A DNA stretch of 64,000 nt from Gammaproteobacteria bacterium. Its GTDB lineage: Bacteria > Pseudomonadota > Gammaproteobacteria > SZUA-152. Positions 5,261 to 50,935 of the stretch are shown here, one piece after another. The notes beneath the pieces are model-generated. The model did not search any database and was not told where the DNA came from. It saw nothing but the letters and a program-made list of their open reading frames with translations. How positions within the stretch are numbered: the stretch's first letter is position 1; the number at the start of each line of letters is the position of its first letter. Location: assembly GCA_050116575.1 (NCBI GenBank), contig JASFOJ010000001.1, positions 43,811 through 107,810 of the forward strand. The letters are read 5' to 3'. The translations under genes and the position numbers were made by a program.

Positions 5261-6523
5261 TTAAATCATTGCTTTTAGCATGTCATGCAGTTCATCGGCT
5301 GAGACATGTCGCTGCGGTTTGTCCTCCCGCAGGAATTTAATACCAACGGTACCGCTGCTCATTTCATCATCGCCCACGATCAATGCCAGCCGGGCACCAC
5401 TTTTATCCGCCCGCTTGAATTGGCTTTTAAAACTGCCACCGCCGCAGTGCATCAGTAACCGCAGGTCCGGCAACTGTTCACGCAAGGATTCGCAAAGCTG
5501 CATACCATAGCCGAACGCGTCGTCTGTCGCGATCACGCAATAGGCGTGGGGTTCAGCATCGGTTTTGATATGTTCGCGCACCAGTTCAACCAGCCGCTCG
5601 ATGCCCATGGCAAAGCCGGCGGCGGGCACGGACTTGCCACCCAGTTGCTCTACCAGGCCGTCATAACGGCCGCCGGCGCAGACGGTTCCCTGCGCGCCCA
5701 ATTGCGTCGTCACCCATTCAAAAACGGTCTTATTGTAGTAATCAAGGCCGCGAACCAACCGGGGATTCACTGTATAAGGTATGCCAATATGATCCAGTAT
5801 CGATAAAACCCCTTCAAAGTGTTCCCTGGACTCGGTGTTTAAATGATCCTGCAACCTGGGCGCCTCTTCGATCAACGCCTGCATCGCCGGGTTTTTACTG
5901 TCGAGAATACGCAACGGATTACTGTGCAAACGCCGCTGACTGTCTTCATCCAGCGATGCCTGGTGCCGGGAAAAATAATCCACCAGGATCTCGCGATATG
6001 CCCGGCGACACTGGTTACTGCCCAGTGAATTGATTTGCAATTCCAGCCCGTCTATACCCAGTTGTTTCCACAAGCGGGCGGTCATGGCAATTAATTCGGC
6101 GTCGATATCCGGGCCCGACATGCCAAAGGCTTCCACGCCCACCTGGTGAAACTGCCGGTAACGGCCCTTTTGTGGCCGTTCGTGCCGGTACATGGGGCCG
6201 ATATACCATAAACGCCGGGATTGATTGTTGATGAGAGCGTTTTCGATGCAGGCCCGCACACAGCCCGCGGTACCTTCGGGGCGCAATGTGAGACTGTCGC
6301 CATTGCGGTCTTCAAAGGTATACATTTCCTTTTCCACAATATCGGTCACTTCACCGATGGAACGGGCGAATAACTCGGTTTTTTCCACTATGGGGAAACG
6401 AATCTCCTGGTAACCGTAACCGCCAATGGTGCGCTTAACGGCATTTTCCAGTGTTTGCCACACGGCGCTGCTATCCGGCGTAATATCATTCATGCCGCGA
6501 ATGGCTTGTATGGACTTCGACAA
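5261..6523 (-). CDS. hisS: histidyl-tRNA synthetase
   Basis: [17 protein letters not shown]... class II aaRS motifs and the ispG-hisS neighbourhood. Confidence 0.9.
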
Positions 6524-45940: not shown

Positions 45941-47092
45941 CTAGGCGGTGGTAACGCTCGTTGCACCGGGCCTGACCCACAACCAGCTAATAACTAACGC
46001 CACTAACGCAACCATGGCGGCTACGCCAAATGTCGCGGTCGCTCCCAGGGAATCCCACGTTAAGCCGCTGTATAAACTGCCCATGGCGCCGCCGGCGCCG
46101 AAACTCAAACTGCTGTATAACGCCTGTCCTTTGCCCTGGTGCCGGCCCTTAAAAGACCTGTGTATGAGTTCAATGGCGCTGGCGTGGTAAATCCCAAAAC
46201 TGGCCGCATGAAAAACTTGCGCAATAATTAACAGCCACAATACATCAACGAAATAACCGATCAGCAACCAGCGAATCGCCGCCAGCCATAAACTCAACAA
46301 TAACAGCGTTCGTAGCCCAAACCGGGGCACCAGATAACGCATTAATAAAAACAACACGACCTCGGCAACCACACCCAAAGACCATAATTGGCCGATTAAC
46401 CAGCTCGAATAGTCATGCTCTTCGAGATAAATGGTATAGAAGGTGTAGTACGGGCCGTGGCTCATTTGCATCAAAAAACAAACGGCCAACAGCGCCAGTA
46501 CGTCCCGCCGTTTCAGGATGTCCAGCAAGGGTTCATGGCTCAGTGGTAATTGGCGGGCGGATTGTTCTGGAACCAGCAGGCTCATCAGCCAGATGCCGGC
46601 AAACAGAACAACCAACACGAAAGGCAGAATATCGGCACCCAGGATATCCAGTACCGACCCAATACCGGCTACTGTCGCGATAAAACCAATGGATCCCCAC
46701 AATCGAATATTGCTGTACCTGTGGGTGAAGTCCCCCAAATAATTAAACGTCGTTGCCTCGAATTGCGGTAACGCGGCATTCCAGAAGAAACTGAATGCCA
46801 CCATGATCAAAAGCAACCACCAGTAATTGTTGTTGACGAAGACACCGGCAAAAGATACCACTGCCAATAGACAACCAAGGCGCACGATAAGCATGCGCTT
46901 GCCCATGTGATCGGCAATCCATCCCCAGATATTTGGCGACACAATTTTCGTAGCCATGATAACGGCCATGAAAATACCAATACTGTGGGCGGAAAATCCG
47001 GTGGACTTGAGGTACAACCCCCAATAGGGCACTAACGCACCCAGCGATGCGAAATAGAAAAAATAAAATCCTGAGAGACGCCAATAAGGCAT
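45941..47092 (-). CDS. MFS transporter (phenylpropionate-permease-like subfamily)
   Basis: 12 predicted TM helices and an N-terminal YFFYFASLGALVPYWGLYL motif. Confidence 0.7.
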   Translation of the reverse strand: MPYWRLSGFYFFYFASLGALVPYWGLYLKSTGFSAHSIGIFMAVIMATKIVSPNIWGWIADHMGKRMLIVRLGCLLAVVSFAGVFVNNNYWWLLLIMVAFSFFWNAALPQFEATTFNYLGDFTHRYSNIRLWGSIGFIATVAGIGSVLDILGADILPFVLVVLFAGIWLMSLLVPEQSARQLPLSHEPLLDILKRRDVLALLAVCFLMQMSHGPYYTFYTIYLEEHDYSSWLIGQLWSLGVVAEVVLFLLMRYLVPRFGLRTLLLLSLWLAAIRWLLIGYFVDVLWLLIIAQVFHAASFGIYHASAIELIHRSFKGRHQGKGQALYSSLSFGAGGAMGSLYSGLTWDSLGATATFGVAAMVALVALVISWLWVRPGATSVTTA

Positions 47093-47221: not shown

Positions 47222-47779
47222 TCAATAAAGCCGCAAACCAAGGTAAAACAGCGGTAACACGGACAGCATAATTATCGCATTCAGGACATAAACCAGAGGT
47301 TTATCGCTCAGCTCCCGGCAAAAAAACACCCGCAGTGTGCTGTAGAAGATAGCACTGAGAAGCAACAGACCCAGCGAATGCGCAATGAAAGTATCCATTA
47401 AATAGGACGCATCGGCTTCCTGCCAACGCAATGCGCCCCCGTAATAAAGTTTGCCGATAACATATTTAACCACTTCGAAGTCAACAGCCACCAGTATCAG
47501 GCACAACAGGCAAAGAAAAAACACAAATGCCGTCCCTTTGGCGTATTTCTTTGACCAGAACACCCAAAAAACCGATAACAGCCCAAAAACTCCCGTCGAT
47601 ATCAGCCAGATGACTCCCACCACGCACCCTACGCAGTTATTTCCTTCCGGGGGGCTGATGTACCACCACTTAGCCACCATGACGATCAGATAGATCAGCG
47701 ACAGGCCAACCAGTCCGAACGGATCTTTATTGAACAAAGCGGATTGCGAACGTTTTCTTCTTCTACTTGTTGTTACCAT
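47222..47779 (-). CDS. hypothetical membrane protein
   Basis: 185 aa with four hydrophobic segments and a basic N-terminus; no family recognised. Confidence 0.4.
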   Translation of the reverse strand: MVTTSRRRKRSQSALFNKDPFGLVGLSLIYLIVMVAKWWYISPPEGNNCVGCVVGVIWLISTGVFGLLSVFWVFWSKKYAKGTAFVFFLCLLCLILVAVDFEVVKYVIGKLYYGGALRWQEADASYLMDTFIAHSLGLLLLSAIFYSTLRVFFCRELSDKPLVYVLNAIIMLSVLPLFYLGLRLY

Positions 47780-47878: not shown

Positions 47879-48979
47879 TCAATCATACCCTGCTGGAATG
47901 ACTGGCGTAGGCGATTGCACGCCAGAATTTTGCGCGCGATGGCGCAACATGTGATCCATTAACACAATCGCGAGCATTGCTTCGGCGATCGGCGTGGCCC
48001 GTATTCCGACACACGGATCATGCCGACCGGTGGTCACCACCTGCGCGGCGTTGCCTTGCATATCAATACTGCGACCGGGAATCCGCAAACTGGAGGTCGG
48101 TTTTAACGCCATGCTGACTTTAATATCCTGGCCACTGGAAATACCACCCAGTACACCACCGGCATTGTTGCTTAAAAAACCCTCCGGCGTCATTTCGTCC
48201 CGATGTTCGGTGCCTTTTTGTTCAACACTTGCAAAACCGGCTCCAATCTCCACCCCCTTCACGGCGTTGATACTCATCATGGCGTGGGCAATATCCGCGT
48301 CCAGGCGGTCAAACACAGGTTCGCCCCAACCCGGTGGTATCCGGGTAGCCACCACATTGATGCGCGCACCGATGGAGTCTCCTTCCTTTCGCAACTTATC
48401 CATGAATTGTTCAAGCGCAGGAACCTTGTCTGCGTCCGGACAGAAAAAAGCGTTATTATGAATTTCGTTCCAGTCGATGGTTTCCGCCTTGATGGGGCCG
48501 AGCTGGGCAAGATAACCGCGTATTTCAATACCAAATTCCTGCTGCAGATATTTTTTGGCAATGCCGCCTGCGGCCACCCGCATGGCGGTCTCCCGTGCCG
48601 ACGACCGACCACCGCCGCGGTAATCCCGCAAGCCGTATTTCTGTTGATAGGTGTAATCGGCGTGACCGGGTCTGAACTGATCCTTGATATTGGTGTAGTC
48701 CTTGGACTTTTGGTCGGTATTGTAAATCACCATGCCAATGGGCGTGCCGGTGGTGACGCCCTCGAAAACCCCGGACAAAATTTTCACTTCATCGGCTTCC
48801 TTGCGCTGGGTGGTATGTCGCGATTGCCCCGGTTTGCGGCGATCGAGATCATGCTGCAGGTCCGCTTCCGTTAACGGCAATCCTGGTGGACAACCGTCCA
48901 CAACACAGCCCAGCGCCAGGCCATGACTTTCGCCAAAGCTGGTAACGGTAAACAATTTTCCTATGCTATTGCCAGACAT
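47879..48979 (-). CDS. aroC: chorismate synthase
   Basis: [20 protein letters not shown]..., 366 aa. Confidence 0.9.
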
Positions 48980-49075
48980 GACTGCATTGTAGCCGTTTCT
49001 CTTTGATTTCTAAACTAAAATAAAGGGAATATTTGAAGCGGGCAGCAAAAACAACGAAACATTACAGGTTAAACA

Positions 49076-49951
49076 TCACTTGTGTTGCCAGGTAAGATGA
49101 ATCCCGGTGCGTTCCAGATTATGCAGCACACCGGACAACTGGTGGCGCACGAACTGTAACCGATGCGGATTTTTACGCGCCAGGCTTGCCCAACTACGGC
49201 CCGGCACCAGGCCGGCAAAATCATATAACCCGGGTTCGGGAAAATAAAACGCTGCCACGAACTCGTTGAGCATACGTTGCATAATAAAACGCAGCACAAA
49301 TGTCTTGGCGGGCGACATCTCATTTACACCGGCTTTTACCATACGCCGGGAAAAGGAAATATGCTGCGCTTCATCAACGGTATGAAACGTGGCCACGTCA
49401 AAAATGGCGGGACACACCATGTTGTTGTGTTGCCGTATCAGCCGGTTTATCCGGTCCGGTATCTCCTGCCCCAACAACACCGTTAACCAGAACGCCGCCG
49501 AATCCATGGAGGTATTGCGCGAGAACCAGTTAAACCAGCGCAACTCATGGAACCGGGTGGCCACGCGTGGCAAGCCACTGCGCTGCACAATTTCGGTAAA
49601 CACCAGACTGTGGCCGGCTTCTTCACGCAATTCGTTTAAGTGATACTTCAGTAGCGCGATATTGCGCCGTGCATACAAAGCAGCCCGCGACAACCGCTCC
49701 ATTAACAACCCTTCCAGCCAGATATTGGCTTCCATCATGTGCAGATATTCAAACTGGGACAGTGCCTTGCGCTGCTCCGCCGGCAGCACCATAAACTCCG
49801 ACACGCCGTACAAGGACAGCGCCTCCTCTGGCAACCAGAAGTCATCCAGGTTCAGACGTAACCAGTTCACCCGTTTTACGGGATCCTGGTAAATACGATG
49901 CTGGGTCAGCTGGTCAAGTAACTCGGCTGATTTGGCGGACGTCAAACTCAT
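49076..49951 (-). CDS. AurF-like diiron-carboxylate oxygenase family protein
   Basis: Two E...(D/E)ExxH motifs: MMEANIWLE...LNELREEAGH and WLTVLLGQE...DEAQH. About 290 aa, helical. Confidence 0.55.
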   Translation of the reverse strand: MSLTSAKSAELLDQLTQHRIYQDPVKRVNWLRLNLDDFWLPEEALSLYGVSEFMVLPAEQRKALSQFEYLHMMEANIWLEGLLMERLSRAALYARRNIALLKYHLNELREEAGHSLVFTEIVQRSGLPRVATRFHELRWFNWFSRNTSMDSAAFWLTVLLGQEIPDRINRLIRQHNNMVCPAIFDVATFHTVDEAQHISFSRRMVKAGVNEMSPAKTFVLRFIMQRMLNEFVAAFYFPEPGLYDFAGLVPGRSWASLARKNPHRLQFVRHQLSGVLHNLERTGIHLTWQHK

Positions 49952-50163: not shown

Positions 50164-50511
50164 GGAGAGGTGGTCGCTACCGACATCCCTGTCTTCCGCG
50201 ACACTTGCACGTCCGTGTGCATTGTCCGAGTGGTTGAAGGAGCACGCCTGGACGATGTGCAGGAAGCACAAGTGCCGCGGGAGGCAGGAAGCCGAGAGCG
50301 GCAAGTGTGTAACACTTTTCAGGCCGTCAATCAGCCTTAAGAGTCAGATTACAAACAAAAATTGGAGAGGTGTCCGAGTGGTTGAAGGAGCACGCCTGGA
50401 CGATGTGCAGGAAGCACAAGTGCCGCGGGAGGCAGGAAGCCGAGAGCGGCAAGTGTGTAACACTTTTCAGGCCATCAATCAGCCTTAAGAGTCAGATTAC
50501 AAACAAAAATT
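50164..50511 (+). repeat. two tandem degenerate tRNA-Ser-derived units (200 bp and 148 bp) directly upstream of the intact tRNA-Ser
   Basis: Each unit starts with GGAGAGGTG...TCCGAGTGGTTGAAGGAGCACGCCTGGA (the tRNA-Ser 5' half). It then carries a ~50-nt insertion in the anticodon loop, lacks the T-arm and 3' acceptor strand, and ends with a shared 40-bp spacer. Unit 1 carries an extra ~50-nt insertion in the D-arm. Confidence 0.7.
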
Positions 50512-50602
50512 GGAGAGGTGTCCGAGTGGTTGAAGGAGCACGCCTGGAAAGTGTGTATACGTTTATAGCGTATCGAGGGTTCGAATCCCTCCCTCTCCGC
50601 CA
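50512..50602 (+). tRNA. tRNA-Ser (anticodon GGA), CCA encoded
   Basis: GGAGAGG acceptor pairs with CCTCTCC. D-arm TCCGAGTGGTTGAAGGA, anticodon loop CTGGAAA, long variable arm, T-arm GAGGGTTCGAATCCCTC, then GCCA. Confidence 0.85.
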
Positions 50603-50604
50603 TA

Positions 50605-50645
50605 TATTTCGTAAAACCATCCGTCTTTTTGGATGGTTTTACGAA
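50605..50645 (+). terminator. perfect 16-bp inverted repeat immediately after the tRNA
   Basis: TTTCGTAAAACCATCC gtcttttt GGATGGTTTTACGAAA. Confidence 0.5.
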
Positions 50646-50650
50646 ATATC

Positions 50651-50780
50651 AGGAGTGAGTGGATTTGAACCCAAGAAGAGGGTTCGACAAATCGGCAGGA
50701 TAGCCGATTTGGTCGTCACGCAGTGACGCCCGCAGGGCGAGGGTCCATGGATGGACCCGAGACAATCCTCCCTCTCCGCC
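50651..50780 (+). pseudogene. third tRNA-Ser-like remnant with a ~77-nt insertion in the T-loop
   Basis: GGAGTGAGTGGATTTGAA...GAGGGTTCGA | 77-nt insert of three consecutive hairpins | AATCCTCCCTCTCCGCCACATATTTGG. This duplicates the tRNA 3' end and downstream bases (a direct repeat of 50583-50625). Confidence 0.45.
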
Positions 50781-50819
50781 ACATATTTGGCAAAACCCAT
50801 TAGTAATCAAAGGTTCAAT

Positions 50820-50935
50820 GGTGCCTCATATCGGTTCCCTCGCAACGAGAAACTGTGAACCCCGTCAGGCCCGGAAGGGAGCAGCGGCAGCAGTGGCTTC
50901 GTGTGCCGGGGTGTGGCTGGTATGAGTCACCACCC
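50820..50935 (+). ncRNA. ffs: signal recognition particle 4.5S RNA
   Basis: GGTTCCCTCGCAACG...GTCAGGCCCGGAAGGGAGCAGC...GTGTGCCGGGGTGTGGCTGG aligns nearly base-for-base with domain IV of E. coli 4.5S RNA. The ends are complementary (GGTGCCTCATATC / GGTATGAGTCACC). Confidence 0.75.

Follow-up and report, generated by a model that had tools for sequence, protein, structure and literature searches.

The question raised by this locus is whether a gene for an AurF-like protein that lies directly upstream of the chorismate synthase gene aroC tells us anything about what that protein does. The locus sits in a 64,000-nucleotide stretch of contig JASFOJ010000001.1 (positions 43,811 to 107,810 of the forward strand; assembly GCA_050116575.1) from a gammaproteobacterium, and we refer to this whole stretch as the window. 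The AurF-like gene occupies 49076..49951 on the minus strand and encodes 291 amino acids from an ATG start. An earlier note on the same DNA took the short gap to suggest co-transcription, and the linkage to suggest a chorismate-derived oxidised aromatic product. We think it probable that the gene product is a stand-alone, soluble, four-helix-bundle dimetal oxygenase, most likely a diiron one, from an uncharacterised subfamily of AurF, and that its adjacency to aroC is incidental.

Judged from its sequence evolution, the open reading frame (ORF) is a genuine gene under purifying selection, because the ratio of nonsynonymous to synonymous substitutions (dN/dS) against relatives at 75-78% identity is about 0.06-0.09, with dS near saturation. 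The gene is present in the ORF list and its product scores 119.9 bits with the AurF family PF11583, for which the cut-off is 29.6 (E 1.5e-34), well beyond a chance resemblance. Residues 9-283 of the protein align to positions 9-282 of the 282 in the profile. Both of the E-x(28-37)-(D/E)ExxH motifs picked out in the earlier note are present, as E80...H114 and E163...H197. The first (49610..49714, minus strand) reads E80-x29-E110-E111-A-G-H114 in the family alignments and falls on helices 58-93 and 98-125 of the structural model. E74 is also compatible with the spacing given in that note, and the first Glu ligand was set at E80 from alignment and helix geometry, without coordinates. The second motif (49361..49465, minus strand), also taken from the family alignments, reads E163-x29-D193-E194-A-Q-H197 and includes a third histidine typical of AurF and CmlI, H190, placed as H190-x2-D193-E194-x-x-H197, that is, in the arrangement H190-x3-E194-x2-H197. 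The predicted ligand set is thus of the AurF/CmlI type, with three His and four Glu (E80, E111, H114, E163, H190, E194 and H197), and all seven are found in the window copy. In AurF itself, Choi et al. reportedly described the ligands in 2008 as E101, E136, H139, E196, H223, E227 and H230. Retention in the subfamily is high, the 131 sequences keeping E80 in 125 cases, E111 in 118, H114 in 129, E163 in 120, H190 in 127, E194 in 130 and H197 in all 131. E110, the neighbour of E111, is invariant across the same set.

More distant comparisons agree with this assignment. Alignment of the family by hhalign to P0111, a core PF11583 protein that scores 317.6 bits against the PF11583 model, has a probability of 99.7% over 274 columns, and in these columns the seven ligands of the family correspond to WFEN, DETRH, GEE and IHVTEEARH of P0111. 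Searched against the PDB, the family profile gives only a marginal match to AurF (E 0.34; residues 209-266 of 3chh), in which motif 2 is nonetheless aligned exactly, tlHtidEarH with TLHLRDETAH. A direct sequence search of the PDB with the protein returned no match, the NCBIfam search no model, and PADLOC no match of the gene to a defence system. The AlphaFold model, built on 53 sequences, has a pLDDT of 91.8 and a pTM of 0.91. It is a ferritin-like helical bundle whose nearest solved folds are CmlI and AurF, at an identity of only 14-15%, with the R2-like ligand-binding oxidases and the R2 proteins of ribonucleotide reductase (RNR) as close structural seconds. Profile, ligands and fold all place the protein in the AurF family, as the earlier note had proposed, but do not by themselves make it a functional equivalent of the arylamine N-oxygenases.

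The window protein differs from AurF and CmlI in several respects. AurF is the p-aminobenzoate (PABA) N-oxygenase of Streptomyces thioluteus (PDB 2jcd, 3chh) and CmlI the arylamine oxygenase of chloramphenicol biosynthesis (PDB 5hyh). The window protein, at 14-15% identity, has no direct sequence match to either, its gene lies among housekeeping genes and not in a polyketide or non-ribosomal peptide cluster, and it is basic, with an isoelectric point (pI) of 9.4. The family median pI is 9.2 and many arginines are invariant. Such a basic, arginine-rich family would fit an anionic partner, but this is unspecific.

A word-indexed search found 53 relatives of the AurF-like protein and a profile search found 131, while an exhaustive search of 1.84 billion representatives gave 850 clusters at E <= 1e-3 and 410 at 1e-10, and 68 clusters at 50% identity with E <= 1e-30. 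In GTDB species genomes, a scan with the pattern [LI]REEAGHSL led to 154 confirmed loci, and 80 of these were kept. The pattern may bias the list of taxa obtained: Thioalkalivibrio, Thiohalospira, Acidihalobacter, Acidiferrobacter, Ectothiorhodospiraceae, Competibacteraceae, Sideroxydans, Sulfurirhabdus, Hydrogenophilales and many proteobacterial metagenome-assembled genomes. Burkholderiales were also among the orthologue loci examined for aroC. Our search of the literature on PF11583 and AurF-like proteins found nothing on the present subfamily. What emerges is a well-conserved, uncharacterised AurF branch whose genes stand singly in the core genomes of chemolithotrophic Proteobacteria. Most AurF-family enzymes characterised so far belong to antibiotic pathways, and one with a housekeeping role would extend what is known of the family's biology.

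The relation to aroC can be judged from how the neighbours of the gene are conserved. We searched every fetched locus, reaching up to 7 kb to either side of the gene, by tblastn with the neighbours present in the window. In the window, aroC (47879..48979, minus strand; PF01264 E 1.3e-139, NF003793 and TIGR00033 above cut-off) is co-directional with the AurF-like gene and 96 bp downstream, in agreement with the earlier note. Among the orthologue loci, aroC follows directly only in L001, L002 and L011, at 75-78% identity and with gaps of 51-69 bp. In L003 and L004 (62% identity) motA, motB and a small ORF separate the two genes, and in L012 (88% identity) the sequence stops within the AurF-like gene. 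In the more than 70 other orthologue loci, whose identity is 37-48%, there is no aroC within 7 kb. The linkage that the earlier note had suggested looking for in related genomes is therefore confined to the window's own clade (>=62% identity).

What is conserved at this place is a different unit. Downstream of aroC in the window are a predicted membrane protein of 185 amino acids (47222..47779, minus strand; no Pfam or NCBIfam match) and a transporter of the major facilitator superfamily (MFS) of MFS_1_like, PPP/HcaT-like type (45941..47092, minus strand; PF12832 E 6e-130), which scores 210 bits against NF008346, under the cut-off of 259. Homologues of the membrane protein lie between aroC and the MFS gene in L001-L004, L011 and L095, and this gene goes with aroC and the MFS gene. 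In L094, L095 and L096 aroC is followed by the MFS gene without an AurF-like gene within 5 kb, and motA-motB lies directly upstream of aroC; of these three, only L095 has the small membrane protein in between. Its gene order is dnaX, tRNA-Ser(GGA), motA, motB, aroC, membrane protein, MFS, DUF2238 and endonuclease I, which is the window's order minus the AurF-like gene. Across loci, aroC and the PPP-family (HcaT-like) transporter form a conserved pair, usually with motA-motB before it, and we regard the MFS transporter as part of the aroC unit and not of the AurF-like gene. The ancestral order would then have been dnaX, tRNA-Ser(GGA), AurF-like gene, motA-motB, aroC, membrane protein and MFS transporter. 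As motAB is missing at this spot in the window's clade, its removal would have brought the AurF-like gene and aroC together, and the simplest history is that their adjacency is a by-product of rearrangement, a matter of local gene order. We judge aroC to be a neighbour of the AurF-like gene and not its functional partner.

The 96-bp spacer between the two genes (48980..49075, minus strand) points in the same direction. A consensus scan finds a promoter-like element, TTTAGA-17 nt-TACAAT, at 49014..48986 on the minus strand, the end of which is 7-8 nt from the aroC ATG. The window, L001 and L011 share the block AACGGCTACAAT without any change despite saturated synonymous sites, and a G(C/T)TA(C/T)AAT box at the same distance from the aroC ATG is found in all seven loci compared. 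The box before aroC is kept under three upstream contexts, namely the AurF-like gene, the small ORF after motB and motB itself. Because this -10-like box is retained whatever gene lies upstream, aroC is probably transcribed from a promoter of its own, and its leader would be very short or lacking. Folding of the spacer RNA is no better than that of shuffled sequence (z = 0.7).

The AurF-like gene, for its part, occurs singly in changing core-genome surroundings. In many lineages a TATAAT- or TATACT-like box stands 5-25 nt before its start, and the downstream gene is often convergent (a BON-domain gene in 12 loci, a metallo-beta-lactamase-fold gene in 7). Together, these two features suggest a monocistronic gene. 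Neither Rfam nor intergenic alignment revealed a riboswitch or 5' leader upstream of it. Several lineage types can be recognised. In one, DUF1820 and the AurF-like gene are followed by SthA-like and radical-SAM genes, and in Thioalkalivibrio they are followed by MltF. In others the AurF-like gene precedes either convergent BON, ferritin-like, response-regulator and GGDEF genes or the convergent metallo-beta-lactamase-fold gene. We considered these neighbours as possible partners and set them aside. DUF1820, divergent in 22 loci, is mostly restricted to Thioalkalivibrio-type lineages, is located between the AurF-like gene and the tRNA and has hardly been written about, while the MltF, SthA-like, radical-SAM, BON, ferritin-like and metallo-beta-lactamase-fold genes are each lineage-specific.

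The wider context is that of a core genome as well. The window's annotated ORFs are housekeeping genes (der, bamB, hisS, ispG, rodZ, rlmN, hscA, iscS, mltF, asd, leuB, leuD, leuC, dnaX, ybaB, recR and a FliA-like sigma factor), and none of them is a polyketide synthase (PKS), a non-ribosomal peptide synthetase (NRPS), an aminodeoxychorismate (ADC) or anthranilate synthase of the pabB/trpE type, or a dedicated reductase. An arylamine-supplying biosynthetic cluster (pabAB-type with PKS/NRPS) is likewise absent from the annotated window ORFs and from the orthologue contexts read.

From these observations we propose the following course of events for the stand-alone oxygenase. The gene would be transcribed from its own promoter, back to back with that of a divergent tRNA-Ser(GGA) gene. 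The protein would bind two metal ions (Fe/Fe, or Mn and Fe), and the metal site would be reduced by a general cellular reductant, as no dedicated reductase gene accompanies the AurF-like gene, and would then activate O2. By analogy with AurF, CmlI, TsnB7 and DnfA, the nitrogen, or less likely a carbon, of a common and probably anionic cellular substrate would be oxygenated, and the third histidine, H190, would favour N-oxygenation as in AurF and CmlI. TsnB7 and DnfA, which share the Pfam family with the window protein, N-hydroxylate the amide of glutamine in trichostatin A biosynthesis and in the dnf cluster of Alcaligenes, so that PF11583 enzymes act on ordinary non-aromatic metabolites and occur in Proteobacteria (PMC11160463). 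The earlier note, in assuming PABA-like substrates for AurF-type enzymes, therefore drew the range too narrowly, since these two use glutamine (PMC11160463). DnfA works with the reductase DnfB and the amidotransferase-like DnfC, which are encoded adjacent to it (PMC11160463), and no partner genes of the DnfB or DnfC type were found near the AurF-like gene in the window or in any locus.

Several points weigh against this reading. One is that no member of the subfamily has an assigned activity, metal content or substrate, the names in use being just 'diiron oxygenase' or an automatic 'AurF'. Others concern the surroundings of aroC. The spacer contains no convincing terminator, and therefore read-through and co-transcription of the AurF-like gene with aroC may occur. 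The MFS transporter gene that follows aroC, being of the PPP family (3-phenylpropionate-type), might also be taken as a sign of an aromatic theme. A further problem is that 16 sequences at 68-88% identity to the window protein have replaced ligand positions: E111 by G in seven, by Q in four and by M in one, E80 by K, Q or D, and H190 by S in three. Such ligand loss among close relatives of the window protein would be unusual if the enzyme were obligatorily diiron. The invariant E110 may replace the lost E111 as a ligand. The relatives with such losses are among P0002-P0022, P0027 and P0028, the last two of which also carry H114N.

Among the alternatives, the one that survives best keeps the dimetal site (Fe/Fe or Mn/Fe) and changes its chemistry. 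As a C-H hydroxylase, desaturase or ligand-binding oxidase, the protein might then use a lipid, a quinone or a cofactor of sulfur metabolism and have a housekeeping role in sulfur- and iron-oxidising chemolithotrophs. The R2-like ligand-binding oxidases and RNR R2, as close structural seconds to the model, lend this some weight. So does the concentration of the family in Thioalkalivibrio, Thiohalospira, Acidihalobacter, Acidiferrobacter, Sideroxydans, Sulfurirhabdus and Hydrogenophilales, even if the scan pattern may have biased that list. In addition, relatives at 34-36% identity (L091-L093, partly L070 and L089) adjoin a divergent luciferase-like monooxygenase gene and a cluster of Fer4, CCG, GCV_H, ArsR and DsrE_2 genes. 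We take this cluster to resemble the sHdr-LbpA sulfur-oxidation locus (heterodisulfide-reductase-like proteins with a lipoate-binding protein). However, this sHdr-type neighbourhood is limited to the one related group, there are no lipid or quinone genes nearby, and 127 of the 131 sequences retain H190, the histidine that marks the N-oxygenase branch. The R2-like ligand-binding oxidases and class I RNR R2 have two His and four carboxylates, without the third His of the window protein, whose Pfam match is AurF and not R2 and which has no NrdA partner. We consider this alternative unlikely.

The next two alternatives start from the tRNA gene on the other side. The window's tRNA-Ser(GGA) (50512..50602, plus strand; found by ARAGORN, Rfam tRNA 55.5 bits) is divergent from the AurF-like gene and 560 bp from its start codon. 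A divergent tRNA-Ser(GGA) is found by ARAGORN within 900 bp upstream in 57 of the 78 loci with enough upstream sequence. The pairing occurs in 19 of 28 clusters at 70% identity, in Gamma- and Betaproteobacteria, often with a gap of about 100 bp, which makes this tRNA gene the only broadly conserved neighbour of the subfamily. In sulfur and iron oxidisers of both these classes the pair persists although its surroundings are reshuffled. Only in about 16 loci does dnaX lie beyond the tRNA. In Acidihalobacter (L045 and L062) a tRNA-Pro(GGG) takes the place of tRNA-Ser(GGA), and about a quarter of the loci have no tRNA there. The pairing could be old synteny or a functional tie. It is the one unexplained feature of the locus, and its persistence gives a concrete hypothesis.

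If the tie were functional, the AurF-like gene and tRNA-Ser(GGA) would be an ancient divergent pair and the protein a housekeeping oxygenase whose substrate is tRNA, in analogy to MiaE, or some other polyanionic component of the cell, and not an enzyme of secondary metabolism. This would be the first role in core cell biology for the AurF family, and we think it quite unlikely. A narrower version, in which a diiron hydroxylase or oxygenase modifies tRNA-Ser(GGA) or its class, for example by a MiaE-like hydroxylation of the ms2i6A37 side chain, would account for the gene's lasting place next to tRNA-Ser(GGA) but is very unlikely. MiaE, the tRNA ms2io6A37 hydroxylase, is also a ferritin-like diiron monooxygenase encoded by a single housekeeping gene, a likeness that is of interest only because the AurF-like family adjoins a tRNA-Ser gene. 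Against such a modification stand the tRNA-Pro(GGG) of Acidihalobacter and the quarter of loci without a tRNA, the lack of an RNA-binding domain, and a fold much nearer to CmlI and AurF than to MiaE. Moreover, genes for tRNA-modifying enzymes are normally not kept beside their tRNA genes, and old synteny of a tightly spaced divergent pair is the simpler account.

The idea that the protein is an arylamine N-oxygenase co-transcribed with aroC, converting a chorismate-derived, PABA- or anthranilate-like amine to a nitroso or nitro aromatic that the MFS transporter might export, is highly improbable given the conservation described above. It can draw on the common strand, the 96-bp gap without a clear terminator, the conserved adjacency in L001, L002 and L011, where 51-69 bp separate the two genes, the AurF-type ligand set, and the likeness of the downstream MFS protein to the 3-phenylpropionate transporter family (NF008346 at 210 bits, and the names given by JGI). 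But the linkage belongs to one narrow clade, is broken by motAB in L003 and L004 and has no counterpart in more than 70 orthologue loci. The aroC-MFS unit is also conserved where there is no AurF-like gene, and in every context the promoter-like box stands right before aroC. Among the annotated window ORFs there is neither an ADC or anthranilate synthase nor any other gene for an enzyme that uses chorismate, aroC itself is a housekeeping gene of universal occurrence, and the identity to AurF is only 14-15%. Nothing points to a chorismate-derived substrate, and if the adjacency is an accident of local gene order, as it appears to be, it is no evidence for a chorismate-derived product. The earlier note was thus right about the gene, its motifs, its AurF family and the position of aroC, while the function it read from the linkage does not stand, and the locus provides no basis for a natural-product prediction.

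Least probable of all is that the clade's protein is drifting to a role that is non-catalytic or uses metal differently, for instance as a pseudo-enzyme or with a mononuclear site. The replaced ligands in the 16 relatives at 68-88% identity would speak for such a drift. Against it stand all seven ligands in the window copy, an overall dN/dS below 0.1, an E110 that could take over from E111 and copies that are all full length.

The region around the tRNA gene has some features of its own. Two tandem repeat units of 148 bp each (50223..50518, plus strand; repeat families D1 and D2) lie between the AurF-like start and the tRNA. They are 99% identical, and each starts with nucleotides 8-44 of the tRNA-Ser and ends with its first 7 nt, so that two 5' pseudo-halves of the tRNA precede the real tRNA-Ser gene. 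A single related copy of the repeat is present in L012, L011, L001 and L002. A 31-nt direct repeat with 90% identity (50588-50618 and 50767-50797, plus strand) covers the 3' end of the tRNA-Ser and its flank, and may have been left behind by an old integration event there. Between this repeat and dnaX is the gene for the signal recognition particle RNA (50829-50925, plus strand; Rfam RF00169, 76 bits). In L005 a called 'gene' of 183 amino acids (5383-5934, minus strand), without a Pfam match, overlaps the tRNA-Ser(GGA) and is probably a false gene call.

Among the domain fusions examined, those with a reductase, an alpha/beta-hydrolase and DUF4873 are found in the core PF11583 group and lie outside the present branch. 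P0092 (659 amino acids; 189 bits to the subfamily profile) is fused to a domain of the histone-deacetylase/acetylpolyamine-amidohydrolase type (PF00850), and this lone fusion could be a hint of an acetylated-amine substrate. Finally, six proteins labelled 'Kaarinaea lacus' (P0011, P0026, P0284, P0290, P0293 and P0302) comprise sequences 75-82% identical to the window's AurF-like protein and to its MFS transporter. The NCBI taxonomy classifies Kaarinaea lacus among the Nostocales cyanobacteria; several distinct variants are present, and these sequences are probably contigs of associated bacteria in those assemblies.

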